64,000 bases of DNA from an uncultured bacterium (GCA_964387845.1 CAYLXA010000009.1:42098-106097); one strand, 5' to 3'; shown: positions 3,001 to 63,677, counted from the stretch's first letter. A program made the numbers and translations. The notes: generated by a model not told the origin, from the sequence alone.

Positions 3001-6000
3001 CGGTCGATGACATTCCGTTCCAAACATACCAGTTTGGCTGGCCGATCGGTTTTGGCTTTCCGTCCTCTTCCAATCCTTCCCACCATTGTTCGACAACCGT
3101 GTCTGTTTCGGGGTCTAATCGGTAAGCACCGTTCGTAAAAATCGTTTTGCTGCCGGGCCCAATCATTTTCATGATGCGCGGATTGCTCTTATTGTTGGTC
3201 CCGACCAAAACGCCAAATGAACCCAGTTCGGGACTTTCTGCTTTTGGCCATCCATCTTCCGAAATCAACTCAGCCATATTAAGATCTCTAATAGGCGTAA
3301 TATAAGTTGGGTCTATGGGCTGCCCGCCTTCATCAAACAATTTGATGCCTGCCTGACCTTGAATCCAAGCAATGTCATCTCCATGAAATTCCACTTCCCA
3401 GTCTTCTTTCAAAGCATCGGGCACTTCAACAAACGCAGAATTGGTTTTTCCGACCGCGCTCGGGTAAGCGCCGAGAATACCGATCCGCTCGCCGGTCTTT
3501 TTGTTTATTAACACTTTGATCAGCATGTGTTCGGCAAGAAAATTCTTTTTCCGGAGCGCATCGTAGTTGGCTTGGCGAAGCGCTTCAAACTTCTTGCCGA
3601 AAAGCGCATTGCCGCCATATTCGGAGCCATAAGACAAAATTAACGCTTCATGCGCAACAAGAGCAAAGTAGCGGTTATCAATGGGATTTTCCTTTCGTTC
3701 GCGCTCAGCAGCTAACTTGTCCAGATCACCCGTCACATGAATGCCGCGCTCAAAAACGTATCCTTCTTTGATGGCATCCAGTGCTAATTTTCCGATTGCG
3801 ATTTTTCCTACTCGAGCCATTTTAATCATGTTGAGAGCAACGTAACGGCTATCGGTCAGCTGAATGCCGACCCGCCTTACTCCAGAATCAGGATCCGACA
3901 TCAAGTATGCAATTTTGTACATCTTCTTGCCCTTGTAGCCATCAGCCTTCATTAAATCTAAAATGGTTTGTTTCTTGCCCTCAGGGCCATCCGCCATCGC
4001 CCAATTATTGGAAGGGCCTTTGTCGTTGGAATCGTTGGTAAGCACCATCGTGCGGTTCGCTGTTCTCGCAACATCCTTCGGATGGGAGTGAGCGACATAT
4101 CTTCCGTCATTTGTTTTAAAATAGCGTCGGGATGTTTTCCCCCACTCAACTTGTTCTTCCTGGAGGCGATCTTCATCGGAAACGTCAACCCATTCCGATT
4201 CTCCCGCCCCGACAAGCTCGTGGGCATAATCAACAAATTCATGAACCGACTGAGGAACTCCTTTGAAATCATCCTCGCTTAAGTTAATCCGCAGTTCGCT
4301 GCGAGAAAGTGAAGGAATTTCACGGTCGCGGTACAAATCCAAAACATCAGACGGTTCCAATCCAAATCTTGTTATAAGAGCTGAGGCAAGCGTTCCGGGA
4401 TTCGCTTGGAGATGTTCTCTCGCTTCATTAAGCGCTCTTTCGCGCATTTCAGCTTCATATGCAGCAGTATCGCTTCCGCGGCCTCTTTGCGCATGACGAA
4501 CGGCTCTGAGTTCGCTGCGAGTCGTTAGAAGCTGATCGATAACTTCAATGGCGCTTGCAACCGTTTGAATTTTTTCAGCTTCTTCATCTGGAATTCTAAT
4601 ATCAAAGTCACCCTCTAGTGACACAACGAATTCGACAGTTTTCAACGAATCCCAATTCTCTATTAAATCTTCAAATCGAACATCATCATCAATGGGAATA
4701 TCTGATTCCAAACCGCTGATCTCTCTAAGTCGCCAAATAACTTGCCGCTGAATGTCACCGATGCTGAATATGCTTGCGCCGGCTGTGTCACCAGTGCGAA
4801 GTTCGCTCTGTTTAGCAGCGAGAGCATTGCTCGGCTCTGTGCTTTTTGCCCGCCGAAGAGAGAGACCATGCCTGTCAAGCGCGGCTGTGATTTCTTGAAT
4901 ATTCTCGACTGAAAAACGGGCTTGCCTGAGATCAGTCGCACTCATTTGGGTTAAGACGTTGACAGTCGTAACACCCTTAGTTCTTAACAGGCCAGCGAGT
5001 TTGACGGGCAAGTTTAATTGTGAAAAACGGATGCTTTGCGCAGCATTACCCCGAAGCTCCGAACGCGCAGCGGCTTTGATTGCTTCTTCCAAGAGCGCAA
5101 TGTGCTCATTGATAACGATAAACTCTGTGACTTGGAAATCCTGATCCTCCGGACTGAGCGTGGCTAAATTTTCATGCAGATAACTGACCAATTCGGCAAA
5201 CTTTGATCTCATAACTTGAAGCATTTCCTTCAGCTCTTCGGCGGAAAACCGGCTCAAATACTCTTTGTAAACGGCTTTCCGGTCAGAGGATTCAACCTGC
5301 GATTGCAACTGCGCAATCCGCATCTCTACGTTCCGGGCCAGATCTGCTGCAAAAGATTCCGGAGAAATCGGCTTATTTTCAAAAAGCACGGCTTCCATAA
5401 GCCCGCTCGGGCCTTCTTTTGTTTCCACCGTTCTTGCGTCGGCTACGACCTGATTAGAGTCCGCATGCTCAAAACCTCTCAACTGGATACCGTTCCGGAG
5501 ACTGACGCCGATCCATCCTCCACGGCCGCCGAAACGCTCGCCCATTCCATGATCCGTAAAAATAATGCGGGAATCAATTTGAAAACCACCGATCACGCCA
5601 CGTTTCTCGGCGTTTAGTTTGGTCGCAAATTCATGAAACGGCAGATGCCCGGTAAACAAACGGTTAAACCCGTTGACTTCGGCGAGTCTTCGCGCACCAA
5701 ACTTATTAATAGCAGCCGCCACATTCGGCACCTTGATCTCGGTCGTGTTGTCGGCATACCAGCTGTTTACCAAATTGAGCGCTTCATAAATTTCAGAAAG
5801 CGACGGGTTTGAGCGTATGTCGTGCGCAACAATGTCCAAGCCTTGCCAAACCGATGGATGTTCTTTGCTGCCTTTTCCTCGATATTCAATTTTCTTAGAC
5901 GGATCATCCTTGCTTCTGTAGGTGAAATAAAATTCACCTGTGCTCATATCCACCGGCAAAAACGCGTGCATATAAATATTTTGATAAGCATCGCGCTGAT

Positions 6001-8644
6001 ACAAATGAAACTGCGCTTTGAAGAAATCAGCTATCCGGTCAAGCGTGTGATTTTCCAGATAATTGGCCGAAGTCACTTTTGCATCGGCCGGCAAGTTTTC
6101 GTTCAACTCCTTGATAACCGCTGTTCCCCAATCCTTATGAAAGACCCAGTCTTTCGCCCACCACTCAGGTGACGTATAATTCTGCCGGTTAACGGCTTCG
6201 AAAACTTTTGCCCAGTCTTTGCCTTGATCCACAAACGATTGGAGGTCTTTCTTGAGTTCGGGAAGAATATCTTCGGACATCATCCGGATCGCTTCACGCC
6301 ACGCCTGATTGGACGGCAGTTCGGCATCAAAACCCTGTGCGGCTTCAATCGATGCATAAGCCTTTCTAAATCCCTCCAGCAAATCTTCCCACCAAGGAAT
6401 CGAAACGGTGCCGACCGCGCGGACTCCGGTGTAAATATCCACCAAATACCAGCCTCGGAACTGATTCCACAACCGGATCTGCTCGGCATCACCGTTCAAA
6501 CTGGCAGAAACTTGCTTGTAAAGACCGCTGCCTTCAACGCGTTTCTTGCGTTTTTCATCAGTCCATGCGCCGTTTACTTTAATTTCAAGCGTATCCCAAA
6601 ATTCTTTTTGCCGCTTTTCATGGAATGCGGTAAATTCGGCGAGATGTTCCGCCCACCAAGTTTTGGCTTTGGCTTCGGGAATTTCTTTCCGGTAGCGATC
6701 CGCGATTGCTTCTGCTTCCCGGTCACCGTAAAAATTATAGCCTTCGTAAAACGGCAAATGAAAACCCTGCAAATTCATAAACATCCACAAATCATGATTG
6801 CCCGGTATAAAATCAGACAGTCCCGCATCAATTAATTCTGCGGAACGATGAAATACTTTCACGCCGTAAGGCCCGCGATCCATCAAGTCGCCTAAATTAT
6901 GAAGGTAAATCTTGCGCCGCAAATCATCAAACGTAACGCCATGAACGGCCAGCTGGTCTTGAAGTGCTTTACTCGGATTCAATTTAAAATCTGCCGGCAG
7001 TTGACCGGGCAAAACTTGGTTGATTGCATCAACGATCAGTGCGTCAAAACGATCGATCGTTCCGTGCTGGTCCGAAATAACGGCTGCAATGGGAAAATCT
7101 CTAGACTCAGAGGGTTTTTCAAGCTGCGAAAGCAAATCAAATAGCAATTTCAGCTCTTCCTTTGACGGCATATAGGTAGTCGAAATGCTCTTTTCTCTCA
7201 GTTCAGAGCGGTTCTTACGATTGCTATTGTGATTGAGCTCAAAAATACGGTTAATCTGACCTGCAACAGTTGCAAGGTCACCCCGCACAGGCCATTCAAC
7301 TGTGACTAAGGTATCCCGCTCAACAATCGGTATCACGGAACTTCTGTGATCGCCTTTGGCTAATTGCACGCCACGAGTTTGAAGAAGAGTTGCTAAAGCG
7401 TGAGCGCTGCCTGCAAACTGAGGTTCCGCATGACCTGGAAAATAAACATCCAATCCTTTCTTCTTTAAATTTGGGATCACATGAACAGGCGCTTGATTAG
7501 AATTGACAAGGCCTGAAACTGGTAATTGGGCCGGTTGGCCAAGAGGATCGCTTGAATCGGCAACAGGAAAAGGACTATTCTTTGTCTTGGTTCTCTTTCT
7601 AAGAGCTTTTTTGCGGGTACTTGCTTCAGTTACCGAACCGCTGGCATGAGCAATCACTTCTCCGTCTTTATTATCGCGCTTCACTTCATAAAAAAGTACA
7701 TTTGTGCCGCCTTTCCGCTCAACTTTAAAAATTTGTAAGCGTATTTTCTTTCCGCGAGGGCCCACAAAGAAAACTGAATTGCGGGCGCGATTTAAGGCAT
7801 AATCTGAAATTGCTGCTTTAATTTCATCTATATACTGCTTCATATCGGCGGTTTCGGTGATGAAACTCGAAAATTCAAATTTCTGGATCTGCTGAGCCCG
7901 GAGTTCAGAGCGCAGCAGTTCGAGTGCGGTTTCGCGGGCTTCGGAATCTTGAGGGAACGCAAAGATGGTGTCCACCAAAACCAATTTTCCGTTTCGGATA
8001 TATTCCATAAAAGAATCGATTTCAGGCCCCGGGAAAACTCCTTTGTGTTCACCCAGCATGTGAGAAATGTGATGATTTTGCGAAACGCTCTTTAAACCAT
8101 TGCCGACATGGAAATGCAGGTGAGGCACTGTGATTTCCGTTCCACCGTTTACTCTCACTTTCAATTCTTTGCCCTGCCTAAAAAAGACCGTTAATTTTTT
8201 ACTGTCATCTGAACTTTCTATCGATGACACGCCGCCATACAAGAGAGCATCTTTTAATTGGGCAGACAAATTATCCGGCCATGCAATGGTTTGGAAATCA
8301 AGGGATCCCTCGCCCAAAAGGCCTCTGTGTTCTGTGGTTTGCGCTACAATTAATAGAAGCTTGTCCGCCAATTGATCCGCAAGCTGTTGGCTGAGCGGTT
8401 TATTCGGATCCAAAAACAACACTTGCCTGAGTTCGGAACGGAAAGAAGGATATTGCGCTGCAAATTGACGGAGTTCGGAAGCGGCTTTGCTCCAGACAGC
8501 GGCTAAATTGCGGACCGTAGTGGTGCCGGGCTTCGGCGCGAAAATAGTTTGCGGAATGTCCGAATATGCCATCGAACTCGAGAATGTAAACGCAAACAAT
8601 GTTGCGCTTGCCGTCATTTTGATCAGTTTATGTTTTAGATTCAT
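1..8644 (-). CDS. Giant mosaic polyprotein A. N-terminus at 8644; the gene continues past the left window edge, so it is C-terminally truncated by the window. At least 2880 codons in the window.
   Basis: ATG at 8642..8644 (revcomp of cat). Hand translation gives MNLKHKLIKMTASATLFAFTFSSSMAYSDIPQ... and stays stop-free down to position 2 in frame 2 mod 3. It contains, in order: a HIT-like HLHFHVGNG motif (~8100..8150), FBPase class 3, an RpoA alpha-CTD-like segment, an ACP-like segment, GTP-PEPCK, TIM and two C-terminal TM helices. It is absent from the ORF track only because no stop lies within the window. No obvious SD upstream. Confidence 0.75.
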   Translation of the reverse strand, partial: MNLKHKLIKMTASATLFAFTFSSSMAYSDIPQTIFAPKPGTTTVRNLAAVWSKAASELRQFAAQYPSFRSELRQVLFLDPNKPLSQQLADQLADKLLLIVAQTTEHRGLLGEGSLDFQTIAWPDNLSAQLKDALLYGGVSSIESSDDSKKLTVFFRQGKELKVRVNGGTEITVPHLHFHVGNGLKSVSQNHHISHMLGEHKGVFPGPEIDSFMEYIRNGKLVLVDTIFAFPQDSEARETALELLRSELRAQQIQKFEFSSFITETADMKQYIDEIKAAISDYALNRARNSVFFVGPRGKKIRLQIFKVERKGGTNVLFYEVKRDNKDGEVIAHASGSVTEASTRKKALRKRTKTKNSPFPVADSSDPLGQPAQLPVSGLVNSNQAPVHVIPNLKKKGLDVYFPGHAEPQFAGSAHALATLLQTRGVQLAKGDHRSSVIPIVERDTLVTVEWPVRGDLATVAGQINRIFELNHNSNRKNRSELREKSISTTYMPSKEELKLLFDLLSQLEKPSESRDFPIAAVISDQHGTIDRFDALIVDAINQVLPGQLPADFKLNPSKALQDQLAVHGVTFDDLRRKIYLHNLGDLMDRGPYGVKVFHRSAELIDAGLSDFIPGNHDLWMFMNLQGFHLPFYEGYNFYGDREAEAIADRYRKEIPEAKAKTWWAEHLAEFTAFHEKRQKEFWDTLEIKVNGAWTDEKRKKRVEGSGLYKQVSASLNGDAEQIRLWNQFRGWYLVDIYTGVRAVGTVSIPWWEDLLEGFRKAYASIEAAQGFDAELPSNQAWREAIRMMSEDILPELKKDLQSFVDQGKDWAKVFEAVNRQNYTSPEWWAKDWVFHKDWGTAVIKELNENLPADAKVTSANYLENHTLDRIADFFKAQFHLYQRDAYQNIYMHAFLPVDMSTGEFYFTYRSKDDPSKKIEYRGKGSKEHPSVWQGLDIVAHDIRSNPSLSEIYEALNLVNSWYADNTTEIKVPNVAAAINKFGARRLAEVNGFNRLFTGHLPFHEFATKLNAEKRGVIGGFQIDSRIIFTDHGMGERFGGRGGWIGVSLRNGIQLRGFEHADSNQVVADARTVETKEGPSGLMEAVLFENKPISPESFAADLARNVEMRIAQLQSQVESSDRKAVYKEYLSRFSAEELKEMLQVMRSKFAELVSYLHENLATLSPEDQDFQVTEFIVINEHIALLEEAIKAAARSELRGNAAQSIRFSQLNLPVKLAGLLRTKGVTTVNVLTQMSATDLRQARFSVENIQEITAALDRHGLSLRRAKSTEPSNALAAKQSELRTGDTAGASIFSIGDIQRQVIWRLREISGLESDIPIDDDVRFEDLIENWDSLKTVEFVVSLEGDFDIRIPDEEAEKIQTVASAIEVIDQLLTTRSELRAVRHAQRGRGSDTAAYEAEMRERALNEAREHLQANPGTLASALITRFGLEPSDVLDLYRDREIPSLSRSELRINLSEDDFKGVPQSVHEFVDYAHELVGAGESEWVDVSDEDRLQEEQVEWGKTSRRYFKTNDGRYVAHSHPKDVARTANRTMVLTNDSNDKGPSNNWAMADGPEGKKQTILDLMKADGYKGKKMYKIAYLMSDPDSGVRRVGIQLTDSRYVALNMIKMARVGKIAIGKLALDAIKEGYVFERGIHVTGDLDKLAAERERKENPIDNRYFALVAHEALILSYGSEYGGNALFGKKFEALRQANYDALRKKNFLAEHMLIKVLINKKTGERIGILGAYPSAVGKTNSAFVEVPDALKEDWEVEFHGDDIAWIQGQAGIKLFDEGGQPIDPTYITPIRDLNMAELISEDGWPKAESPELGSFGVLVGTNNKSNPRIMKMIGPGSKTIFTNGAYRLDPETDTVVEQWWEGLEEDGKPKPIGQPNWYVWNGMSSTDPKRIDIALKAVPVKDLEKFWLSDKSDTIRAILEEFDLEKINKKEAKSRLIKLSPHINEDVAESLMKIYAAALQWAHPNSRFTVSIPDNAKDFLPENWGKPVSFQVVEWGVKLPKGGFFLRQAPDTATGILYGLMMISAATAAAAGTVGALTPSPFANGDFEAGDEIAHTNNMFEFFENQPKEVIFITHNVFKEGPDGKPEFPGFRENVRRDIWSSERVKDPRGTKNAKKWPMLIGFTPTVDGFRREGLDMTDEALAKLLDVSEQDLEWFTKEAIRWRQWLFEEKGVVHGKTRYERLHPKLRQKFDEIMNDWNSFQAQRAIEKLKIDSEALARAENAKRTPIIGGNWKMAVNDKISAQVLTEQIVVSLGNTQLENDPEIIIAPSFVHIDEVVREIKRLRETTIYPGSKQLTLGAQDLSAEEPGAQTSQISYAQLKDLGVQYVIIGHSERRHGNLKKAADHRLTESDPVVNDKVKIALKNGLKPILAIGELLEEREAFKTFGVIEKQILEGLKDVTAEQMANVVIAYEPVWAIGTGKTATPEQADEVQRYIRALVLSIYGEDVASKLRIQYGGSMNPKNAASLVAKKNIDGGLIGGASLKADEFTGIVKAANESVRSELQVELISGFGSEWKIQVRAGDKEFLAPVASFNPEVTARTVEANLRHIGLKGEVNGSKLKIAGSDQEIDFENLDQAVSDLRDVLNAVLNRSELRQQVDAQSLEVLKQNDPNLFKALTDAISDRPISDFHRRTLVGKELLRATGEVPQFVRETVEQLSRSELRAQKNSNDLFIKVLDELKNIRRVTVDKVILLASNLGYAINRREAVQLIHSIGFTVHQKGSQFYSRPDYGSRSELRTDSLESLTGRTKWLAISAFVAAGVLVFAFGPIVRSVGLKETFEGYFSEISFGQVAVGVIGVLGLAAAVIIRRIKSGTQDTNAGHSKASKTATAYSLEDMRALITQLVDHAERTTELALSKIDPEQTDWLERFQGFKNEYFKLARDYLN
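190..430 (-). other. Two predicted TM helices near the window-edge end of A.
   Basis: WLAISAFVAAGVLVFAFGPIV and VAVGVIGVLGLAAAVIIRRI, preceded by SRSELRTDSLESL. Confidence 0.5.
1200..1995 (-). other. Module in A: triosephosphate isomerase.
   Basis: PIIGGNWKM (~1951..1981), IIGHSERRH, AYEPVWAIGTGKTATPEQA, YGGSMNPKNA (~1262..1295). Catalytic Asn, Lys, His and Glu are all present. It directly follows PEPCK with no RSELR between them. Confidence 0.9.
2030..4288 (-). other. Module in A: GTP-dependent phosphoenolpyruvate carboxykinase (PckG type).
   Basis: VARTANRTMV, then LAEHMLIKVLINKKTGERIGILGAYPSAVGKTNSAF (kinase-1a, compare FPSACGKTN), then EFHGDDIAWIQ. Preceded by RSELR at 4289..4303. Confidence 0.8.
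4289..4303 (-). other. Example RSELR site in A (codons CGC AGC GAA CTG CGG).
   Basis: Plus strand ccgcagttcgctgcg. Reads ...LSRSELRINLSEDDF at the N-terminal boundary of the PEPCK module. In frame with A. Confidence 0.9.
4540..4700 (-). other. Module in A: acyl-carrier-protein-like domain retaining the DSL phosphopantetheine-attachment serine.
   Basis: ENWDSLKTVEFVVSLEGDFDIRIPDEEAEKIQTVASAIEVIDQL. The ACP signature DSL-x-x-VE-L-x-x-x-L-E-x-x-F-x-x-x-I-P-D-E-E-A is present. Flanked by KQSELR and TTRSELRA. Confidence 0.6.
4870..5045 (-). other. Module in A: RNA polymerase alpha C-terminal-domain-like helix-hairpin-helix segment.
   Basis: FSQLNLPVKLAGLLRTKGVTTVNVLTQMSATDLRQARFSVENIQEI resembles the RpoA alpha-CTD (LELSVRSANCLK...GKKSLTEI). 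Confidence 0.35.
5070..7190 (-). other. Module in A: fructose-1,6-bisphosphatase class 3 (Bacillus Fbp type, metallophosphoesterase fold).
   Basis: Motif LGDLMDRGPYGVKVFHRS encoded at ~6868..6895. FIPGNHDLWM follows downstream. The block is about 700 aa. It is bounded by RSELR at ~7196..7210 and ~5052..5066. Confidence 0.55.
8534..8644 (-). other. Leader of A: Sec-like signal or leader peptide of the conserved family.
   Basis: MNLKHKLIKMTASATLFAFTFSSSMAYSDIPQTIFAPKPG. First RSELR at about residue 67. Confidence 0.6.
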
Positions 8645-8651
8645 GTTTTTA

Positions 8652-8679
8652 GTGATAAGTGATAAGTGGTAAGTGGTAA
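8652..8679. repeat. Four tandem heptamers in the 75-nt B-A spacer: GTGATAA x2 then GTGGTAA x2.
   Basis: Read directly: agtgataagtgataagtggtaagtggtaag. On the coding (minus) strand this is CTTACCA CTTACCA CTTATCA CTTATCA, ending about 10 nt before the A start codon. Confidence 0.7.
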
Positions 8680-8702
8680 GCAACTTAAAACTTACCACTT
8701 AC
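8669..8702. promoter_or_regulatory. Perfect 12-bp inverted repeat with a 10-nt loop between the stop of B and the start of A.
   Basis: gtaagtggtaag (8669..8680), loop caacttaaaa, cttaccacttac (8691..8702). The left arm overlaps the heptamer repeats. No U-tract follows on the transcribed strand, so it is not a canonical intrinsic terminator. Candidate RNA processing or regulatory stem, or a protein-binding site. Confidence 0.5.
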
Positions 8703-8719
8703 AACTTACGACTGAAAAA

Positions 8720-25876: not shown

Positions 25877-26049
25877 AGTTTTTCTTTTCCGTTATCTGAC
25901 TTTTTTAAAGTTTTGACTTAAAGAGCCAAAGCTCCCCCGAGTAATAAGACTGGGATTTATTGTCGGGTGGATTTATTTGTAGAACCGCAACTGAAAGTCA
26001 TGGGTATTACGGAAGTTCTTCCTTTCAATCAGATTTTTACGACAAGCAC

Positions 26050-26078
26050 AAGGTAACATACAGCTTAAACCAAGTCAA
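26050..26078 (-). promoter_or_regulatory. Candidate promoter for B in the 271-nt C-B spacer.
   Basis: On the minus strand: TTGACT (plus strand 26073..26078), 17 nt, then TGt-TACCTT (extended -10-like, plus strand 26050..26058). Weak -10. Confidence 0.2.
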
Positions 26079-58300: not shown

Positions 58301-61300
58301 AAAGGCGCGGCTGCGTGCCTTCCAGAGCCGTAACATCATGCTGATAAGGTTTATAGACAATATAAAAAGGGATGCTTCCTAACAGAACGACGCCGAGCGC
58401 AATTCTGAGAACGCTCATTTTCCGCGCGCGTGTCCAGAACGGCTTGCGCCCAGTTTCTGCTCTTAATTCCGAGCGGCTGAAAATGCCCGGCGTTACAAGC
58501 TCCGCTTCGCGGTTGTAGCGAAGCAGATCGGCCGCCAGGATTTTGTTGCCTTCGTAAGTTTCCAGCGTCACCCACAATTCATTGTCTGTTACGGGCCTTC
58601 CCAAAGCCTTTTCCATGGCCGCACGCGCTTCGTCAACCTCAGCTGGCGATTTCGTCCAATTTTTGGTAGATAGGAAGCGCATGCCTGCAAGATGAGGAAT
58701 TCTTTCTTCCCATGAAAGTTTTAAATACTCTTCGATCGGAAGATTCCGGACCCCTTTAACACCAACAGCCGCAATTTTCATATCAGGGCCTGCAACACCC
58801 GTTGACTGCCACATGTTGGTTTCGGCTTTCACCACAACCGCATTGCCTGACTTAGCCGGCTTGGCATCTAAAATGCGCGGGAACTTCCGGCGGCCGCGCT
58901 CGGCAATGGCTTCACGCTCGGCCGGTGTTGCCCCGCGCAGTTCTTCGATGAATTCCCTGTCCGCTTGACCATCCTGTTTATAAAGGCCTATCACATAGCG
59001 CGGCGTAAAAAATGCGACGGCATCGTTAAACCAATAAGAATCAGTGGGCTTTACAACATCACGGTTTGCAACCTGCTTTTTAACTTCTTCATCGGCGCTG
59101 GAAACAATGTCGTTGGTGATATTGATATTCGGGTCTTCGGCAAGCTGATGAGCGCCGTTGTCTTCCATAATGATTAAGCTGCCGCCTTTTTGTCCGGGCG
59201 CGCGCGGCGAAACTTCCGGCTGGAAATCGAGCTCGCGATCGAGGAAAAGCCCCAGGGTTCTCAGCCAAACTTTGTCAAATTTGGATGCGTAATTGTCCAC
59301 ATTCTTGACGAAGGCCCACTTTACACCGGCGTCAACCATACGCAAAAGCTCGCCGCTTACAATCATTTGATGAAAATACTCGCCGTGCCCCAAAGGATCC
59401 CGCTCGCCTTCAAAAACAACAGCGTTTGTGTCACCGCTCGCTAATTTTTCCTTTACTTCATTAGATCTTGCGAGCGCCGCTTGAAAAGTTTCATCAGATG
59501 TGAATTTGCTGCGCATTTTTTCCACTTTTTCCGGTTTTTCAACAAACTTGGCGCCGAGCGGCTGATGGAAAAATCCGACTTGTTCGTTGTGCAGGCCGTA
59601 ATGACGATTTTTTCCGAGCATTTCGTCGTGTTCCGGCCGGTATTCATCATTCGAAAGAAATCCGATTAGATTTTCCCACACCTTTGTGACCGGCATTCCG
59701 GCATTCCTTACCTCTTCAGCAACCGCACGGAAAAGCCGGGAAAGATTTTCGCCGAACTCACCGAAATAGGTTGTCACCTTTCCATCGCTTGTGCGCCCGA
59801 TAGGCACAGCCGCTTTTGATAAAATTTCGCCGTCTACGTCCATAGCCAGCACTTCTTCGGGCGCTTCTTTGGTGTTCATGCGTGAGCTTGCGCCCGCAAC
59901 CAGCATCGAAATATAGCCTTCGCCTCTATCCAGTGACTTGACGGCGATAGCTTCAAGCCGCAGGGCTTCCTGCGGGTCAATTTCTGTAATATCAAACACA
60001 TCTTCTTTGCGGCTCGCGCGGAACGGACGCGAAATCGGTGTAGTTGCCAATTCCCCCCGCCAATAAGCCAATCCGGTCTCAACTTCGCTTCTTAACTCCG
60101 AGCGTGAAGCTTCAAAACGGCTCAAATCAAGCGAGCCGGTGGCGAGAGCCGCCGCCGCTCCTCCCGCATCTTTGGATTTCTTGAATGTGCCCTCAACGAT
60201 GAAAGAAAGCGCCCCGAGATTTCCGGTATTTTGAACCGTCAGCTTGGGATGGCCATTCGTCAGTCTAATGTCACGAATATCGCTCAGCGTTACTTCCAGC
60301 TTACTATCTATTCGATCCGGCTTGAGCAGAGTGTCCTGAGTCGCGGTAGAACGCAAAGCATTCCGCACCGCACTTTTAATGGCTTGAGACAAACTCTTTT
60401 TTGTAAACTCCCGCTTTCGGCCTTCATCAGCTAAGGTCAATTCCGTGATTTTAACTGCAGATTCGTCCTCTGCTTTTTCTGATTGCCTGAGCTCTGCACG
60501 AGATTTAGCAGCAATTACTTTTACATTAATGAGAACGTTACGCGGCAGTGTGTTGATGGAAACGGTTGTCCGTGCCGGTTGGTCGCTTTCGGGTGGAAAG
60601 GTTGTTTTCCATATGGAGTTATACTCCGGAAAATCTCTTGCCATATCCGAAAGAGATACTCGCACCGCTAAGATGTTTTCCCACGAGGACCCCTCTTTTT
60701 CTAGCTGGGTCCGGATATTTTGAATGGCCGCTTGAACCTGCGCCCCGATTCCTTCCGCTCTGATCTCGCCATTGTCATTCTCAGGACCTACGGCCTCTAA
60801 AACAACAAGCTCGGCGGGTAATGACTCCGGCACTTTGGCAATTGCATTAACTTCAAATGCGATCGGCGTCGGCAGCGCAACGACTTCGATAATCGTGTGC
60901 TTGGGTTCATGGCCGACTTGTTTGAAATGCTCTGCCCAAACACGTTCAAATATCGCGCGCTCATCATCGTTATAATCTGTGAGAAACACTTCCATTTCCG
61001 TAATTGCCTTCCATGTAACACCCGCTGCTTCCAGAATAAATTCAACATTGGCAAAGGTTGAACGCATTTGGGTTGCAATATCACGTGAAAGAACTTTGCC
61101 TTTGTCATCTTGATGAACGCCTGGAATTCGGTCTGAACCAAGCTTGCGAGGGCCAACACCTGAAAGAAAAAGATGATCTTGAAACCGTCTGGCATGAGGG
61201 TATGCCCCAACTGCTTTCGGGGCGCGATCGCTATTGATTGCTTCGCCAATCCGCGGTTCAGCGCGACGAGGTTTTTCTCGATCTCTTATTCGCAATCTTT

Positions 61301-63677
61301 CATTCAAATCTTCATGGATTGACTTGTATCTTCTTTCCAATTTTCTCACTTCACTACCTGCCATATCCACTGCATGGGCTTGATGAGGATCGCGAAAAGG
61401 TCCATCACTTGCTTGCACCGTCATCAACCAATTCGCTCTTGCATTATTAAGTTGTCGTTCAACTTGAAACAGTTCTGCTTGAAGCTCAGCTATGCGATCG
61501 CTGCGCAGCTCGGCTCTGGCTTTGGTTGAAGGAGAAAACGAGAGAATGGGAGAATAATATATATTATTTAAACTTAATAAATAATTGATAAATAATAAAT
61601 ATTGTGGTAAGCTAGCGGCCGTAATGAAATCGAATGGCTTATTAACCGAATCGAAGCGTGACTTTATCCAGCGGTTTATGCTTAACCTGCTTTGCATTAT
61701 TGCTGCATCCGCCCTGGCTAGCAATTTCTTTACAGCAATGCCATTGGGTGTTAGGATTTGTCTTGGCAGTGGCGCTTTAGTTGCTCTTGTGATCGGATTT
61801 TTTATCAAATAAGGAGGAAATAACAATGTTTGGAGCACTGCTTGTACTATCCATGACTTTGATATGCGCTGCCATAATGATCGTTGATTACTATCAACGA
61901 AAGCACCGCCGTCATCACTCCTGATTTTTCCCGTTTCAGCGTTTTCCCGAAGTTCGGAACGGTCAATAGGCACAACTTTTGCCAGGTAATTTCTAGGAGG
62001 AATACGGAATGTGAGCGAATCTTCTATCGTTGGATGTTCAAAAACAAATTGATAATCTTGCCTCATGTTTTTGATTAACCATGCTTCTCTTACAAGCTCT
62101 CTTAGATTTGTGTGGCCCCAATCCAGAAAATGATACACGCCGGGGTCCTGCTTATGGGCATCAGTATATAACTTTATAACTGCTTCAATGGTAAATTGAA
62201 TCCATTCTTCCAGTTCTTGTGGATCTTTCAAACTCGCCGTCAAAGGACGTACAACCTGCCGTAAACTACGTCGTGGGATTCGAATGCCTGCCATATTAAT
62301 CTCGTTCTTCATGCGCCAGACGATAGGTTCAACGTCACGGTTTAGCATCACAAAATAAGTAACAAAACTTCCCACTGCACCGATACCCAATAGGCCTATG
62401 TGCCAGTTTTTCAGTAGAGAATCTGCTACTTCTGAGATTTGACGCAACTCGGAGCGGGATTCTCCAGCGCTAGGCGATTCCGCCAAAATGCGCGGCGGAT
62501 CCGTCTTTCTTTGTGGCGGAAAGTGATAGGCGTTAGGTTGTTTTGATTCACTTAACGTTTGACGCTTATCACTTAACGCTAGATTCGGAAGCCCGAGAAG
62601 CTCCCGAAATTCGGAGCGTTGAGCAGCTTTTACGAGTTCATAGCTACCGGCAAAAACAAAGCCAAGCGCGATAAACACAGAGGCTTTTGAAGTCGAGCTC
62701 ACATCCGGAATGAAGCTGTTCAGTATTTTGTTTACCAGATAGAGCAACATTGCAAATGGTATTGCAAGAACCATCGTCTCAAGGTCACTTCTTCTAAAAG
62801 CGCCGCCAGCGCTCCTAATTTTCCTCGTTTTAGTGCCTTCCCGAAGCCCAGACCTATCCTCAGACAAAATAGTTTGACTACCAGCTTCTTGCCCTGCCGG
62901 AACAACCAACACCTTTTGATATACCGTCGAAACGCTCCAGCCGCCTGTGCTCTCTTCCTGCAGTTCCAGTTTGTAACCTTGGTTCTTAAGCGCCCAGGCT
63001 TGCTCTAAAATCTCGCTGAGATAATGCTCTAACCCGTAAAAATTTCTAGAAAAGAAAGGCCCTCTTTTCTCTGCATGTAAAAGTACGTCGAGCTCAACTA
63101 GAAATTCGGTTACAAATTCATCAAACGCAAATTCGTTTGCTGACGGTTCGCTCTGCATTTTATTTTTGATAAACTCGGCCCCTTTTTGAACAACGAATCT
63201 GGGCAGGCGGCGGGATCTTCCATAATCATACAAACTTTTGTCTAGCCTATTTTCAATATTTCTGAGACGGCTAGCTTTACTCTTCGCCATCGCCAAGGCA
63301 ACGAGCACTGTAAATGCGCCTGACGCAAAAGCAGCCATCAGCATGAAGACCGAAACATCCGAAACGCGTAACTCGGAGCGGGATTTATCAATTGCGGAGT
63401 GCGAAGTGTCAAATGCGGATTGATCGCTTCCATTCCGCATTCCCTGCCTAGCCGGCAGGCGGGCGAAATCCGCATTCCGCACTGGAAGCCCGAGAAGCTC
63501 GCGGAGTTCAGAACGGCCTACAATGGAGGCGGCTAATTTCTTGGGAGTAACGGTGTTTAAACTTTTAAATGCGGAAATAACGGACGGTGCATCCGAGTAA
63601 GCAACGGAATTGGTAAAAGAAAAAGCAAGGACGAGCGTTAATGCGAGAGATTTTGTGAGAAATCGATTGAATTTCAC
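49365..63677 (-). CDS. Giant mosaic polyprotein E, 4770 aa, built from hexose-phosphate and UDP-sugar metabolism modules.
   Basis: ORF-track ORF. GTG start at 63675..63677 with AAAGAGG about 10 nt upstream. TAA at 49365..49367. Leader (M)KFNRFLTKSLALTLVLAFSFTNSVAYSD. Confidence 0.85.
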   Translation of the reverse strand: MKFNRFLTKSLALTLVLAFSFTNSVAYSDAPSVISAFKSLNTVTPKKLAASIVGRSELRELLGLPVRNADFARLPARQGMRNGSDQSAFDTSHSAIDKSRSELRVSDVSVFMLMAAFASGAFTVLVALAMAKSKASRLRNIENRLDKSLYDYGRSRRLPRFVVQKGAEFIKNKMQSEPSANEFAFDEFVTEFLVELDVLLHAEKRGPFFSRNFYGLEHYLSEILEQAWALKNQGYKLELQEESTGGWSVSTVYQKVLVVPAGQEAGSQTILSEDRSGLREGTKTRKIRSAGGAFRRSDLETMVLAIPFAMLLYLVNKILNSFIPDVSSTSKASVFIALGFVFAGSYELVKAAQRSEFRELLGLPNLALSDKRQTLSESKQPNAYHFPPQRKTDPPRILAESPSAGESRSELRQISEVADSLLKNWHIGLLGIGAVGSFVTYFVMLNRDVEPIVWRMKNEINMAGIRIPRRSLRQVVRPLTASLKDPQELEEWIQFTIEAVIKLYTDAHKQDPGVYHFLDWGHTNLRELVREAWLIKNMRQDYQFVFEHPTIEDSLTFRIPPRNYLAKVVPIDRSELRENAETGKIRSDDGGAFVDSNQRSLWQRISKSWIVQAVLQTLLFPPYLIKNPITRATKAPLPRQILTPNGIAVKKLLARADAAIMQSRLSINRWIKSRFDSVNKPFDFITAASLPQYLLFINYLLSLNNIYYSPILSFSPSTKARAELRSDRIAELQAELFQVERQLNNARANWLMTVQASDGPFRDPHQAHAVDMAGSEVRKLERRYKSIHEDLNERLRIRDREKPRRAEPRIGEAINSDRAPKAVGAYPHARRFQDHLFLSGVGPRKLGSDRIPGVHQDDKGKVLSRDIATQMRSTFANVEFILEAAGVTWKAITEMEVFLTDYNDDERAIFERVWAEHFKQVGHEPKHTIIEVVALPTPIAFEVNAIAKVPESLPAELVVLEAVGPENDNGEIRAEGIGAQVQAAIQNIRTQLEKEGSSWENILAVRVSLSDMARDFPEYNSIWKTTFPPESDQPARTTVSINTLPRNVLINVKVIAAKSRAELRQSEKAEDESAVKITELTLADEGRKREFTKKSLSQAIKSAVRNALRSTATQDTLLKPDRIDSKLEVTLSDIRDIRLTNGHPKLTVQNTGNLGALSFIVEGTFKKSKDAGGAAAALATGSLDLSRFEASRSELRSEVETGLAYWRGELATTPISRPFRASRKEDVFDITEIDPQEALRLEAIAVKSLDRGEGYISMLVAGASSRMNTKEAPEEVLAMDVDGEILSKAAVPIGRTSDGKVTTYFGEFGENLSRLFRAVAEEVRNAGMPVTKVWENLIGFLSNDEYRPEHDEMLGKNRHYGLHNEQVGFFHQPLGAKFVEKPEKVEKMRSKFTSDETFQAALARSNEVKEKLASGDTNAVVFEGERDPLGHGEYFHQMIVSGELLRMVDAGVKWAFVKNVDNYASKFDKVWLRTLGLFLDRELDFQPEVSPRAPGQKGGSLIIMEDNGAHQLAEDPNINITNDIVSSADEEVKKQVANRDVVKPTDSYWFNDAVAFFTPRYVIGLYKQDGQADREFIEELRGATPAEREAIAERGRRKFPRILDAKPAKSGNAVVVKAETNMWQSTGVAGPDMKIAAVGVKGVRNLPIEEYLKLSWEERIPHLAGMRFLSTKNWTKSPAEVDEARAAMEKALGRPVTDNELWVTLETYEGNKILAADLLRYNREAELVTPGIFSRSELRAETGRKPFWTRARKMSVLRIALGVVLLGSIPFYIVYKPYQHDVTALEGTQPRLLTPQEIEKRRPRRPAPEAIAPEMSPSFRHPTTSRKSIDTGKIRITSEWTPVFGDWKAIYKNYIVVFKNSAGKQFEVVPDAHGTPVFENEKRVGNVFSSAQTGNEVYFVSRSELHEPNWLAIAGLLVFSVGGIFGILLWPDIVSWLRRNHSTKDNSHLPDSRSELRKMDTEAIAAETAEAKILAEKLTTPLDAKGNAEMAARFLKGGYDQDGYGVPEGAAIHGSFAVKGTQGYYSEDVNPETGRTGQQEFVDGVNRLKKFFIKREERLGKPIKLIIKTGIGGQHTPFQGIADVFQVVDPASGDILGEYELGKDYEKALENIVDEKQISWDQIAVIPSSKSGSTDETMMIFSEIFYVLLKKVAQEKTNLEPDFMSDAKAHPDIQKFADTVFNTLHDINFVDGKERSARDLFKIDEVRFRKSSLIQIIAKKMNGVMGEAKVKEIFATVLGNMFFETTDRPAESRLSAFIRNSGLDKVLGDDAPGFGAMFDNVGGRWTGDLHMMTFLAYHRLNPLEYWIGRNSAIKRGGNSGEEIGNRILNDEISDVALIVPNHLFWFAKSVEQNFNESIWQKGFANLVAIRERDWQKQPQWRRFFKQPNRLVINLADIQMPPVGFNVFDIDELNLGQSSKIKKADKQFIADQIGKLFSIFYTATTVVGNRLIARALKEKGFSVNDVNLNDLDNPATKIVQENLYTRQPYVELGKKLLESWLQDLQMADAVEHEFALTQQKAKELSVNPVFGGQAFRASISLEEGISWQNTDRLSNLIKKAMDYADQSGRKFVPFIYLDGDKFVNLKKYLVDFGIEWVIQGTGDQHISYQQVLANPDKFLPFFVSFVPEQGKESKGLPAIGFAKGYLHNVSPHMVRDMFAEASFGALVNNRKDQGGEGVFLRLTDDIYHAQVLRSAFRKAAQARSELRNALDSNAMFIDFGGVLADERSPAFAELVAKGLIVKSGLRKEDLSGDDFNKLKNLLVPHKDDPIREALYTDPDAFYPWFESIREFLSQKDGFKGLSEDEFKDIFFGERPENPAIKQVIEKLLAIKDNGVHIGVVVNFELAGKEHLLRFLKKHYGNLFDPRLVILSSELGMKKGKAPEFFDKVLERFRSVIGEDARNTVLIDNDPDAFEGARQAGFEYLVHYAKDAGKAPFTGDQILQAADLDSGAAVLEILARSELRASKLTWTAFWQTIGSWSSVRTALRRFEDLERKSIKQAIDMLVNTLVYKKVDVSNLLKWGLPKAINQYSLDQLRSILQLINRLANSRNSKEIEIVIRKIDSIYDVLIQNLSSHDPETRRLAVIALGHLEDDRALPHLEKLKDDFRRVETLITVETGEFENVEVWPEQDGYEAKHGLAPYGGSHMESRPITEQRPEFVTLFDNRPVVKGAINKLKRNITIKLIQQKLKEQHLITATQQAVRDTYINLANEPHFIDMAVKILETHEDFDLIVEPGAGHEESHVVDTIEGLQGTYEWKEDVYAPVWVWDSLPQLSLMPKKERRSELREEKALRDDIAKKLTDSKIRITPEVVKEIGEIWDAISELHAVNQGRLYFLNQLAKGVRPEKWDEAMIEALEEFQSLHGVVFIQAVRSVPQVEVEEARKADHDAKGNKKEEVKKPAPKPVLTDVEFAASPALKPVKASLTKFVISVSVKAPSADSVTLESPFKPDASEPAAGTTVIQPNQPKLGEGSAKVYFVINLNIRGNVRQFKLEVGGRNTLKQVLAAVVKQAFGAGEFDKIAPEISESQIKIFITSKFRHIGKTPISVSNLSVDWKDAQDKELLNILTGIYTAQSHSMPQLQVLGDLVENDAVQIFVTDTVRSSELPSARKTLNSDKSDIKAKEAALKTLVDNVAKPFAAAFHEVAATPYPAERFYAEFSAAIEAMSDLDAALKVQSGKLWLFGFRYWEEKLQEIVKLAAKTKIESKNLKELSELSTQLHARSREIQEKWQSLQSQFQGSAASQAEGKLAEMISAGTAAQVSELNEKISSAFSALRNEIAARSELRRLSEMDATKLISKYIRMKATEADETLVKLMARDYDYRSRDKEHAPSPKLWFLWGLTWARMAFEKAKKSGSKNETVVIARDARKIEPELVEALTAGFLYAGLDVVYTAEDGPNAATSYSWAVREIQPLVSVLLTSSHVASTDEIRGAKVSIQDEEGRLASLTTQEIKAVSLPMVQKYMADYGWMVHDAGERSGYIRALNVDVNTVRITTLVGRVAGIGGSAANLFNLADQLRKSDFPEKVLSDWEQRIAGYVMFQKPFEGLRIAIDGAHTPSGYLAEAVFKNLGAEAVLINGDVQSITGMHKADPSIMANLEELRTKMSDENIDIGLAFDLDGDRGAIVIKRKDGSFLVLPPDNLMAILIPFLVNRGGYHSRSSEHVAVISDVLSTLGVADAAGENGIETFITDSGYPFLKAKAKELKGKGYSIPMLSERSGHAWLDVTGEYENPIAVAVLSVIQVAQYAQEHKTQNPFPFEAAFEHYAKPYKQSTRFQPPFQASLLQKLAGDPRNDTGYQYSDTATPNPKIIALGRDLTVEKAIQEFSKEKEFLSPAGIFKVREVITFKGEDGLYRFADIRFKDEAGKEAGRFVIRASSNDPTFVASYEVRVRTEGGETLESESVKNRYISTGGIVFDWLEREQLAHISGDTVKDGNTRTESASLAAYRQFLESRSELRASTETVHPKVAAAEAAFNAAQAALTEAEASKQKGAILNARVALAEKELDLRRAELQHLTPIAEEPDGTQLLNPSKWASASAAVNSAKEGLERVITERNKYTNPPERSNPWKVRSELRNSRTASADFQRLNAEDALNITDTRLSSLTKAHQAIGTQLQQNPGLRSELHRSMAADKLIHDSTSQGWVFARSIVFDEGLAPYYVQIAAQSNVRIGFVTPTRSELRFVDELNASLPIDRQILYAATPEKLAKLMRSKGIRTNIYFTDSSHEAEIVRSELSDYFTSVVLFTADMISSIRGRLGKAVEAIDQFIRSYQIVLSRA
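49368..50430 (-). other. C-terminal coiled-coil plus conserved C-terminal region of E, with at least five RSELR-type sites.
   Basis: ...KVRSELRNSRTASADF...GLRSELHRS...SIVFDEGLAPYYVQIAAQSNVRIGFVTPTRSELRFVDELNASLPIDRQILYAATPEKLAKLMRSKGIRTNIYFTDSSHEAEIVRSELSDYF...QIVLSRA*. Confidence 0.4.
50430..52120 (-). other. Module in E: alpha-D-phosphohexomutase (phosphoglucomutase/phosphomannomutase).
   Basis: ETVVIARDARKIEPELVEALTAGFLYAGLDVVYTAEDGPNA (~52085..52110), LLTSSHVAST (the phosphoserine-loop position), IAIDGAHTPSGY, GLAFDLDGDRGAIV (~51325..51350), PMLSERSGHAWL. Confidence 0.85.
54380..54480 (-). other. HEAT/PBS-lyase-like repeat in E.
   Basis: SHDPETRRLAVIALGHLEDDRALPHLEKLKDD. Confidence 0.35.
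54870..55560 (-). other. Module in E: HAD-superfamily phosphatase/hydrolase.
   Basis: MFIDFGGVLADERS (the DxG/D motif I-like FDxxGVL, ~55510..55550), HIGVVVNFELAGKEH, VLIDNDPDAFEGARQAGFEYL. Confidence 0.55.
55900..57750 (-). other. Module in E: glucose-6-phosphate isomerase family (SIS domains), divergent.
   Basis: KLIIKTGIGGQHTPFQGIADVFQ (~57420..57480), AVIPSSKSGSTDETMMIF (~57270..57310, the SKSGTT-ET signature), FDNVGGRWTGDLHMMTF (~56820..56860, GGR[YF]S-like). Confidence 0.7.
58700..59990 (-). other. Module in E: UDPGP-family nucleotide-sugar pyrophosphorylase-like (UTP-glucose-1-phosphate uridylyltransferase type).
   Basis: ISMLVAGASSRMNT (~59880..59930, compare L-N-G-G-L-G-T-x-M-G) and YFHQMIVSGELLRMVDAGVKWAFVKNVDNYASKFD (~59285..59330, compare NIDNLGA). 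Confidence 0.5.
60470..61240 (-). other. Modules in E: two tandem RidA/YjgF (endoribonuclease L-PSP) family domains.
   Basis: Copy 1: RAPKAVGAYPHARRFQDHLFLSGVGPRKLGSDRIPG...EMEVFLTD...HTIIEVVALPTPIAFEVNAIAKV (~60840..61240). Copy 2: ELVVLEAVGPENDNGEIRAEGIGAQVQAAIQNIRTQLEKEGSSWENILAVRVSLSD...TTVSINTLPRNVLINVKVIAA (~60470..60830). Confidence 0.75.
61561..61625. other. A 65-nt island of more than 85% AT inside the E coding frame that stays open in frame.
   Basis: gaataatatatattatttaaacttaataaataattgataaataataaatattgtggtaagc encodes SLPQYLLFINYLLSLNNIYYS. Contains -10-like TATAAT/TAATAT strings on both strands. Confidence 0.5.
61900..63150 (-). other. Internally duplicated module of unknown function in E (two copies, each ending ...TGKIRS-x-GGAF), plus TM helices.
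   Basis: Copy a: EFVTEFLVELDVLLHAEKRGPFFSRNFYGLEHYLSEILEQAWALKNQGYKLEL...TKTRKIRSAGGAFRRSD. Copy b: LEEWIQFTIEAVIKLYTDAHKQDPGVYHFLDWGHTNLRELVREAWLIKNMRQDYQFVFE...ETGKIRSDDGGAFVDSN. A third degenerate echo sits near 58300. Confidence 0.45.
63366..63380 (-). other. Example RSELR site in E (codons CGC TCC GAG TTA CGC).
   Basis: Plus strand gcgtaactcggagcg. Reads KSRSELRVSDVSV. Confidence 0.9.
63570..63677 (-). other. Leader of E: conserved Sec-like leader.
   Basis: (M)KFNRFLTKSLALTLVLAFSFTNSVAYSDAPSVISAF. First RSELR at about residue 56 (GRSELRELLGLP). Confidence 0.6.

Follow-up and report, generated by a model that had tools for sequence, protein, structure and literature searches.

The reiterated RSELR pentapeptide in giant multi-enzyme open reading frames of an uncultured bacterium: a putative endopeptidase recognition site

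The question raised by the locus described here is what a short, exactly repeated peptide does in a set of giant proteins whose recognizable parts are housekeeping enzymes. The stretch of DNA that we analyzed, 64,000 nucleotides from an uncultured bacterium (GCA_964387845.1 CAYLXA010000009.1:42098-106097) and called the window in what follows, carries all of its large open reading frames (ORFs) on the minus strand; in order of increasing coordinate they are A, B, C, X, D and E. The five giants, A to E, are punctuated by the pentapeptide RSELR, which the original prediction, made from the sequence alone, took for the delimiter of protease-processed polyproteins. Our computational tests all support RSELR as a peptide-level delimiter between functional units. 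On balance we lean towards RSELR being the recognition site of a dedicated processing endopeptidase, for which the smaller ORF X would be the leading candidate. Coordinates are counted from the first nucleotide of the window and refer to the minus strand unless the plus strand is named.

Occurrence and coding of the RSELR motif

A six-frame scan found 51 exact copies of RSELR: nine in A, eight each in B and C, 12 in D, 14 in E and none in X. All of them fall in the two minus-strand frames to which the giant ORFs belong, and the other four frames contain no copy. The original prediction had counted about 65 exact copies, which overstates the exact number by 14; a figure of that size is reached once conservative variants are included (RAELR, KSELR, RSELH, RSELQ, RSEFR and others), the pattern [RK][SA]E[LF][RHQ] giving 66 and a slightly wider pattern 68. 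The same holds for its tally per ORF (10, 10, 9, 18 and 19 in A to E), which matches our counts only with the variants, while the absence of the motif from X and the six copies that it had placed at 4289, 8750, 8927, 26775, 41904 and 63366 were right.

The number of RSELR copies expected from amino-acid composition is 0.036, and 2000 shuffles gave a mean of 0.037 and a maximum of 2, so that the comparison with composition for which the prediction had called came out in its favor. Among the 60 pentamers of the form R.E.R, 51 are RSELR. The flanks are nearly free of information, with Ser at about 30% in position -1 and Ala at about 27% in position +1; the claim that most copies are preceded by Ser, Arg or Ala was too strong, since position -1 holds Ser in 15 and Ala in 6 of 49 cases. 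The combination of five fixed positions and uninformative flanks is, as we read it, typical of strict protease sites and not of degenerate docking motifs.

The codons used for the motif are mixed. Ser is drawn from both TCN and AGY, Leu from both TTR and CTN and Arg from all six of its codons, and positions 3 to 5 of the motif track the general codon usage of the ORFs. Because synonymous codons are mixed even between the TCN and AGY and the TTR and CTN families, selection acts on the peptide and not on the DNA or RNA, as had been proposed from the variety of codons. A DNA repeat or mobile-element scar was rejected because neither the codons nor the flanking DNA of the copies are conserved. RSELR is thus a genuine motif, present in vast excess and under selection at the peptide level. 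As a separate observation, the first Arg of the motif is biased towards CGY (42 of 51 copies, or 82%, against 49% in the ORFs; p=3e-4) and the Ser leans towards TCN; this lean may be a codon-pair or translation-rate effect.

Placement of the motif along the ORFs and in related species

The motif avoids recognizable domains. None of the 51 exact copies and none of 17 variants falls inside a Pfam envelope, where envelopes take up 30% of the residues; random placement put a mean of 12.9 copies into envelopes and never fewer than one in 20,000 trials. The claim that the motif sits at the boundaries of enzyme modules is thus confirmed, the placement being clearly not random with respect to domains. 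When the ORFs are cut in silico at RSELR, the motif is found to end 8 to 17 residues ahead of position 1 or 2 of the profile of the enzyme that follows: 8 residues ahead of position 2 of 3HCDH_N (B residue 2778, 17531..17545), 10 ahead of Biotin_carb_N (C residue 2989, 30711..30725), 12 ahead of AprA_N (C residue 94, 39396..39410) and 17 ahead of position 1 of PEPCK_N (A residue 1448, 4289..4303). On the other side, about 9 to 24 residues separate the last domain of the preceding unit from the next motif, as in the copies 9 residues past the ACP-like domain of A (residue 1376, 4505..4519), 11 past the TPR of D (residue 1600, 44265..44279), 17 past AMP-binding_C in B (residue 3767, 14564..14578) and 20 past both the methyltransferase (residue 740, 37458..37472) and the end of the ACCA domain (residue 4077, 27447..27461) of C. 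The variants are placed alike, with RSELQ 5 residues after TIM, RSELH 12 residues before the B12 mutase of B and KSELR between a B12 domain and a methyltransferase.

A second kind of boundary is formed by transmembrane (TM)-like segments, which we called with a crude Kyte-Doolittle hydropathy scan. Ten of the 16 segments have a motif 1 to 30 residues upstream, against a random mean of 2.05, and many of the small pieces would therefore start with a hydrophobic helix. In E the copy at residue 100 (63366..63380) lies directly upstream of the segment at 108, the copy at residue 408 (62442..62456) upstream of that at 427 and the copy at residue 1735 (58461..58475) upstream of that at 1755; in D the segments at 212 and 1616 follow the copies at residues 196 (48477..48491) and 1600, in C the segment at 763 follows residue 740, and in A the copy at residue 2729 (446..460) is found just upstream of the segment at 2746, before which A has none. 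ORF B has one weak segment (residues 140-158), which is followed by the copy at residue 159 (25388..25402) and then by the start of a Rossmann domain at about 171. Of the 51 copies, 41 have no TM-like segment downstream. A sorting signal of the sortase or exosortase type was considered and rejected, because the motif is internal and reiterated, these 41 copies are followed by no TM-like segment and the ORFs end in soluble modules with the terminus ...RAA.

More than 30 distinct enzyme domains are tiled along A to E (Pfam and NCBIfam), and the cargo consists of housekeeping enzymes such as TIM, PEPCK, B12 mutases with MeaB, biotin carboxylase, acyl-CoA enzymes, glutamate dehydrogenase (GDH) and PGM. 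ORF A (2..8644) runs past the left end of the window and is therefore partial, with at least 2881 residues; behind its leader are a metallophosphoesterase-like domain, the ACP-like domain, PEPCK with TIM and a TM-like hairpin, and the scan placed further copies at residues 245 (7898..7912), 479 (7196..7210), 1194 (5051..5065), 2587 (872..886) and 2655 (668..682). ORF B (8720..25876, 5718 residues) carries a leader, a 3-hydroxyacyl-CoA dehydrogenase, a crotonyl-CoA carboxylase/reductase-like enzyme, a B12 mutase, 3HCDH with an acyl-CoA synthetase, an HpcH/CitE-like lyase, a MaoC hydratase, an acyl-CoA dehydrogenase and a C-terminal module, with additional copies at residues 1683 (20816..20830) and 5484 (9413..9427). 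ORF C (26148..39689, 4513 residues, likely ATG at 39674) carries a leader, an AprA-like methyltransferase, TM-like segments, MeaB followed by a B12 mutase, a B12-binding domain and a methyltransferase, a biotin carboxylase with a carboxyltransferase, a P-loop module and a C-terminal module; a copy at residue 813 (37239..37253) lies among these.

The two remaining giants are richer in the motif. ORF D (41289..49076, 2595 residues) is made up of a leader, TM-like hairpin modules, a Glu/Leu-type dehydrogenase, TPR and a C-terminal module, and copies are spread over residues 402 (47859..47873), 463 (47676..47690), 737 (46854..46868), 1722 (43899..43913), 1967 (43164..43178), 2141 (42642..42656) and 2225 (42390..42404). 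ORF E (49365..63677, 4770 residues) opens with a signal-peptide leader and continues with TM-like segments, RidA, a unit resembling UDP-glucose pyrophosphorylase (UDPGP), HEAT repeats, phosphoglucomutase (PGM) and a C-terminal module, with copies at residues 573 (61947..61961), 1953 (57807..57821), 2702 (55560..55574), 2958 (54792..54806), 3281 (53823..53837), 3779 (52329..52343) and 4448 (50322..50336) in addition to those named above and below.

All five ORFs begin with a leader that resembles a Sec signal peptide and has a basic n-region, a short hydrophobic core of the form ...F[ST]FT[NS]S.AY[ST]/[DE] (the slash marks the apparent signal-peptidase site), a spacer and the first motif within [RS][SA]ELRxLLGLP. 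In E (63501..63677) the core is ...FSFTNSVAYS/D and the first copy, at residue 55 (63501..63515), stands in RSELRELLGLP. The leaders of D (48894..49076) and C (39501..39689) run up to first copies at residues 57 (48894..48908) and 59 (39501..39515), that of A (8426..8644) has ASELR and then RSELR at residue 69 (8426..8440), and in B (25667..25876) the first motif is degenerate, SAEVRDLLGL. The prediction had correctly placed the first copy of A, C, D and E just after the leader; against its range of residues 56-67, the scan gives 69, 59, 57 and 55. Its further proposal, that the leader is removed at this copy, did not hold: the leader resembles a Sec signal peptide of the ordinary kind and has an A-Y-S/D signal-peptidase site of its own, and the first RSELR is therefore not needed for leader removal. 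The leader of A to E is better conserved than an ordinary signal peptide and is the same in related species, where other Omnitrophota lineages have a signal peptide and [ND]LRP instead; it may be a dedicated targeting signal. NCBIfam returned nothing for the leaders, and a leader profile found no match among 5.8 billion proteins, a result put down to the query being too short for a database of that size.

At the other end, B, C, D and E finish with a paralogous module of about 200 residues that starts at an RSELR and closes with ...R[AS]A-stop (the end of A lies outside the window). Alignment of the modules places their starts at B residue 5513 (9326..9340), C residue 4301 (26775..26789), D residue 2387 (41904..41918) and E residue 4565 (49971..49985). 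The module of B (8723..9340) contains the copies at residues 5646 (8927..8941) and 5705 (8750..8764, 9 residues before the stop codon) and ends in ...GRAA; that of C (26151..26789) ends in ...TRAA; that of D (41292..41918) ends in RSELRTLRSA, with the copy at residue 2586 (41307..41321) 5 residues before the stop codon; and that of E (49368..49985) contains the copy at residue 4670 (49656..49670), aligned to RAELK in the orthologues of the related locus L005, and ends in ...LSRA. The module matches no known family. Its profile found no match among 5.8 billion proteins and nine proteins among 1.8 billion representatives, three of them ORFs of the window and others including P0040, with [RH][SA]ELR, and P0044, with five RSELR in 530 residues; the family appears to be rare or very divergent. 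An AlphaFold2 (AF2) model built with the four paralogues had a predicted local distance difference test (pLDDT) score of 43 and was unusable. The C-termini of the ORFs are conserved as ...R-A-A or Q-S-A before the stop, and in the K.DGG lineages described below as ...YE[DE]T[LV]NKI before the stop; such a conserved terminus could be a recognition tag.

Related loci were fetched through homologues of X, the related contigs deriving from JGI 3300028648 and 3300025142 and from SRR25730291. RSELR is the top pentamer in two further species, one with an X of 86% identity (10 copies in about 5.7 thousand residues) and one with an X of 63% identity (8 copies in about 5.8 thousand), both far above shuffles. 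Gene order and the composition of the ORFs vary among species, and the blocks of homology begin and end at the motif. For example, residues 100-645 of L005_302 correspond to E 1192-1743 with RSELR aligned at both ends, the copy at E residue 1192 (60090..60104) being the exact start of the shared cassette and that at residue 1735 its end. In L003_11929 the block C 92-754, whose start is marked by the copy at C residue 94, is fused straight to the block C 2988-4068 at a single RSELR, the counterpart of that at C residue 2989. The MeaB-mutase block that intervenes in C, and that begins at the copy at residue 1128 (36294..36308) in common with L003_19582, sits in a separate ORF, P0039, in the comparison with L003. 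Since homology blocks between species begin and end at the motif, the cassette bounded by RSELR is the unit of evolutionary exchange.

In other lineages the giant ORFs beside the homologue of X have different recurrent motifs, each far above shuffles: RSEAR (7 observed, 0.005 expected), RSE[LV]R/RAEVR (19 and 0.08), R.DGG (7 and 0.04), K.?DGG (6 and 0.26) and xAGLE (6 and 0.13). The first copy often stands shortly after the leader here as well. The classes of motif map to clades in a neighbor-joining tree of X domains, which fits co-evolution of the motif with X; common descent predicts the same match.

The candidate endopeptidase and the rival explanations

ORF X (39676..41250, 524 residues, likely ATG at 41244) lies between C and D. 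It has a signal peptide or anchor of its own, unlike the leader of A to E, and the 522-residue form that starts at the likely ATG is P0001 in the protein collection. Synteny and fusion link X strongly to the giants: it adjoins giant ORFs in the related loci examined, and 9 of 82 cases (L058, L060, L080, L081, L083, L084, L085, L086 and L052) have the X domain as part of a giant ORF, 1.1-3.9 thousand residues long, where it comes immediately after the signal peptide. The local motif of these lineages appears about 100-140 residues after the X-homologous region in L081 and L085 and about 90 residues after it in L058 and L060. Two of the loci, L081 and L085, possess both a free X and a fused, divergent paralogue. 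X and C share 14 nucleotides (39676..39689), from the listed GTG start of C to the stop of X, which suggests that X and the polyprotein downstream are coupled in translation; in L005 the stop of X likewise overlaps the next giant ORF.

The AF2 model of X, made with 35 homologues, has a pLDDT of 87 and consists of an alpha/beta core (strands 51-57, 64-70, 96-99, 147-151, 456-462 and 479-485) with a helical insert of about 300 residues. Residues H72, E100, E152, R437 and H465 are invariant among the 35 homologues, each placed at the C-terminal end of a beta-strand. A catalytic set of two His and two Glu defines the active enzymes of the TIKI family, a group that includes the endopeptidases Tiki and RRSP (PMC6254334). 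The model gives moderate support to a match between the invariant His and Glu residues of X and this set, and likewise moderate support to X being a secreted or anchored hydrolase of the TIKI/EreA/ChaN/TraB type. Some of the unannotated stretches of the giants were also searched for hidden proteases, and phmmer of E 1958-2706, E 3286-3783 and A 484-1198 against PDB sequences returned only a weak metallophosphoesterase match.

These results can be joined into the following proposal. ORFs A to E would be modular precursor polyproteins, each built from a Sec-type leader, a string of cassettes and the C-terminal module of about 200 residues, where a cassette may be a single enzyme, a fused pair of enzymes or a small membrane module. 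RSELR would be the strict, short linear recognition site at the joints, that is, after the leader, between the cassettes and before the C-terminal module. A dedicated and highly sequence-specific endopeptidase, with X as the leading candidate, would cut the precursor there into its cassettes, and cutting would free enzymes that start close to their native N-terminus and membrane modules that start with a hydrophobic helix. Our guess, based on the small or polar nature of the residues at position +1, is that the cut falls after the second Arg (P1 = Arg, with mostly Ala, Asn, Ser, Lys or Glu at P1'). We consider cleavage of the precursors at RSELR to be moderately probable from the pattern of sites; that X is the enzyme responsible is about half as probable as cleavage itself and has to be held tentatively. 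The pair of protease and site is favored over the alternatives because of the strictness at five positions, the closeness of the sites to native-like N-termini, their presence after the leader and before the C-terminal module, the exchange of cassettes and the switches between lineages. The polyprotein reading of the original prediction is therefore retained as far as the peptide-level delimiter is concerned, which shuns domains, stands just upstream of enzyme N-termini and at the boundaries of shared cassettes and is conserved with lineage variants. It is given up for the removal of the leader, and it is limited by copies that do not lie between enzymes.

Several observations weigh against this proposal. 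The motif does not part every enzyme, as several stretches between motifs hold more than one (PEPCK with TIM; 3HCDH with acyl-CoA synthetase; biotin carboxylase with carboxyltransferase; MeaB with mutase, B12-binding domain and methyltransferase). For four copies, E4670, B5646, B5705 and D2586, a cut has no obvious purpose, as they are within the C-terminal module or 5 to 9 residues from the stop. The single TM-like segments between successive motifs in E may put sites on both faces of a membrane, where one protease confined to a single compartment could not reach them all. The leaders and X appear to be exported, and a fused X would share the fate of the cargo, yet the cargo needs ATP, GTP, CoA, NAD, B12 and biotin, which are cytoplasmic cofactors; this conflict, which the prediction had not noticed, is the largest puzzle of the locus. 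Four loci with an X homologue and giant ORFs (L007, L014, L063 and L083) show no clear recurrent motif; L007, a distant high-GC lineage, has nothing like RSELR, and its relatives show a weaker recurrence of xGLE(E). The assignment of X itself is also affected. Pfam matched X only to PF04187 (ChaN/Tiki superfamily; Cofac_haem_bdg) with 18.9 bits against a cut-off of 27.7 (E 0.0016), NCBIfam returned nothing for it, Foldseek of the model against PDB found nothing significant (best E 0.09), and a profile of X matched PDB sequences only through spurious coiled coils. The TIKI/Ere superfamily also holds esterases and a haem-binding protein, and we know of no member that cleaves after Arg.

The copies in and at the very end of the C-terminal module are better suited to a binding motif than to a separator, and they bring up an explanation in which RSELR is never cut but serves as a docking motif: a partner (a chaperone, a scaffold, secretion or insertion machinery, the HEAT and TPR modules or the C-terminal module) would bind the intact giant at its joints and organize its folding, transport or assembly. 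The leader and the C-terminal module on every ORF suggest a chain that is handled whole, and the HEAT and TPR repeats among the modules are protein-binding. Docking motifs, however, are normally degenerate, with two or three fixed positions, where here five are fixed in 51 copies with few conservative variants; for a motif that stands just before native-like enzyme N-termini and flanks exchanged cassettes a separator is the simpler account, and the conserved partner gene X codes for a predicted hydrolase. We regard docking as possible but rather unlikely.

The frequent position of the motif ahead of TM-like segments could instead mean that it is a structural or topogenic linker. As a short helix, a hinge or a charged cue next to the membrane, it would aid the folding of cassettes and the insertion of helices, and no enzyme would read it. 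Arg, Glu and Leu favor helices, the flanks of RSELR are modestly more linker-like than average and some copies coincide with helix positions in the C-terminal module. Nevertheless, many sequences would do for a generic linker or charge cue, with no call for exact identity at five positions; moreover, most copies precede no TM-like segment, and the discrete switches between lineages (Leu to Ala in RSEAR; R.DGG; xAGLE) point to a reader that co-evolves. This explanation seems to us improbable.

Peptide-level conservation with mixed codons would also be found for a signal of the nascent chain to the ribosome, by pausing or by 2A-like bond skipping, which would give separate polypeptides or folding pauses with no protease at all, and the mild CGY/TCN preference in the first two codons of the motif might point to an influence on the rate of translation. 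The known arrest and skipping peptides are longer and rich in Pro and Gly, and we know of none that resembles RSELR; the lineage motifs R.DGG and xAGLE share no chemistry, and the conserved and sometimes fused hydrolase X would be left unexplained. A ribosomal signal is in our estimate very improbable. That the motif has no function, as a product of chance or composition, a DNA repeat, a mobile-element scar or a mistranslated multi-gene ORF, is refuted by the 51 copies against 0.036, by DNA that is not conserved around them, and by ORFs A to E that are open in the standard bacterial code and have homologues with the same motif in independent assemblies.

The wider locus, known systems and the Omnitrophota

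Judged by its sequence, the window comes from an Omnitrophota bacterium. The named homologues of X (35 detectable) are all from Candidatus Omnitrophica/Omnitrophota, and a 63%-identical copy is present in the metagenome-assembled genome PCVY01000066.1. The enzymes of B and C together (8720..39689) resemble a B12- and biotin-dependent acyl-CoA route of the ethylmalonyl-CoA or 3-hydroxypropionate type, its members being a Ccr-like reductase, two acyl-CoA mutases with MeaB, a carboxylase, a MaoC hydratase, a lyase like CitE or malyl-CoA lyase and an acyl-CoA dehydrogenase. In the Pfam and NCBIfam searches B has two 3-hydroxyacyl-CoA dehydrogenases, and C has a second mutase with its own B12 domain beside MeaB. 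Most NCBIfam scores for the enzymes of B and C fall far under the curated cut-offs, which marks these enzymes as divergent. In the first 3-hydroxyacyl-CoA dehydrogenase of B, residues of about 190-290 (approximately 25000..25300) form an apparent insertion in the Rossmann domain that is rich in Lys, Ala and Glu, and NCBIfam alignments skip there from about profile position 4 to about 77. A megasynthase for polyketides or nonribosomal peptides was rejected, as Pfam found no KS, AT, KR or condensation domains in A to E and just one weak ACP-like match, one AMP-binding enzyme and the AprA-like methyltransferase.

Some further features of the locus can be noted. Between the stop of B and the start of A (8645..8704), an inverted repeat, AAGTGGTAAG...CTTACCACTT, precedes tandem CACTTAT units that lie directly 5' of the ATG of A. 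The repeat may be a terminator or a hairpin with a regulatory role, and a consensus promoter and terminator scan near the start of A did not call it. Rfam found no RNA family in the whole window. Two ORFs on the plus strand, of 203 residues inside A (6224..6835) and 259 residues inside B (16400..17179), are most likely spurious shadows of the giant genes. In L002/L003, where X is 86% identical, a gene of 118 residues with bAvd and 23S_rRNA_IVP domains lies between X and the next giant ORF (11613..11969 of that locus); such a protein is an accessory of diversity-generating retroelements, and the gene is absent from the window.

Proteins of this giant, multi-enzyme kind have already been published for Omnitrophota as 'Archaeovorins' and 'multi-enzyme metabolic clusters', and these reports already suspect possible cleavage and invoke C39 and S8 peptidase domains, one of them calling the cleavage points unknown (10.1101/2023.11.21.568195; 10.64898/2026.06.07.730766). 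West-Roberts et al. describe the same conflict between export and cytoplasmic-type glycolytic domains in giant proteins. The giants of our window share with those the phylum, long ORFs with a signal peptide and/or TM segments and tiled domains of central metabolism (TIM, PGM), features by which A to E belong to the class. They differ in length, at 2.6-5.7 thousand residues against 30-147 thousand, and fall below the threshold of at least 10 thousand that those catalogues use. Pfam found no C39 or S8 domain in A to E. A term search of the Omnitrophota giant-protein papers returned no description of a reiterated delimiter, of a shared leader and C-terminal module or of a TIKI-like neighbor, and full-text literature searches returned nothing on RSELR or on Omnitrophota cleavage motifs.

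Outside the phylum, the closest likeness in layout is to viral polyproteins (picornavirus 3C, potyvirus NIa, flavivirus NS2B-NS3), which also have many units per ORF, a strict short consensus at the unit boundaries and a protease encoded in or beside the polyprotein, the part for which X is the candidate here. The window differs in coming from a cellular bacterium, with housekeeping and membrane cargo, Sec-type signal peptides and a TIKI/Ere-like rather than chymotrypsin-like candidate, and in that its cleavage is a proposal. MARTX toxins are likewise very large bacterial proteins with cassettes that are shuffled among strains and parted by processing sites; the cassettes are effectors, set free by a cysteine protease domain within the toxin. 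The MARTX processing site is a loose linker containing Leu and not a strict pentapeptide. A MARTX toxin was rejected for A to E, in which Pfam found no RTX repeats, C80 cysteine protease domain or type I secretion signature, and which have an N-terminal leader like a signal peptide and carry metabolic cargo instead of toxins.

Precursors of organelles offer a further comparison. The Arg5,6 mitochondrial tandem precursor holds enzymes of one pathway and is described as being cut internally by the mitochondrial processing peptidase after transport (PMC8734313). That precursor is eukaryotic and has two enzymes and one presequence-like internal site, whereas in the window the sites number in the dozens and have a strict motif dedicated to them. 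Plastid-targeted polyproteins of Euglena and dinoflagellates are signal-bearing precursors whose units are parted by conserved decapeptide linkers that are removed after import. They are eukaryotic as well and consist of repeats of one protein (the light-harvesting complex or the RuBisCO small subunit), whereas the ORFs of the window combine different enzymes. Engineered 'fuse-and-cleave' nif polyproteins joined by TEV sites have many enzymes per ORF, a strict protease site and balanced expression (PMC6130400). These are synthetic, and the window locus would be a natural bacterial counterpart if the cleavage is real.

A broader and doubtful picture is that Omnitrophota export whole blocks of central metabolism as Sec-targeted polyproteins. 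A membrane-tethered X of the TIKI family would dice them outside the cytoplasm at a lineage-specific pentapeptide, and the enzymes would act in an extracytoplasmic compartment or as metabolic 'effectors' in a host or prey. The cargo would be gluconeogenic and glycolytic enzymes together with the B12- and biotin-dependent acyl-CoA pathway, and the pair of protease and site would co-evolve as a private code (RSELR, RSEAR, R.DGG, xAGLE). We put this forward as speculation from the sequences of these loci.

For the giant proteins of Omnitrophota, for which both the choice between an intact and a cut chain and the positions of cutting stood open, RSELR provides the first concrete candidate cut sites. 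The giant ORFs could be split informatically at the motif for structure prediction and annotation, and the cleavage hypothesis gains in X a specific candidate enzyme and becomes directly testable. If the proposal is true, a cellular bacterium would be using the polyprotein strategy of viruses for its housekeeping metabolism, and the locus could supply a new pair of protease and site with five-residue specificity as a possible tool. The finding also makes more acute the paradox that, in these ultra-small and possibly parasitic bacteria, enzymes of a cytoplasmic type bear export signals.

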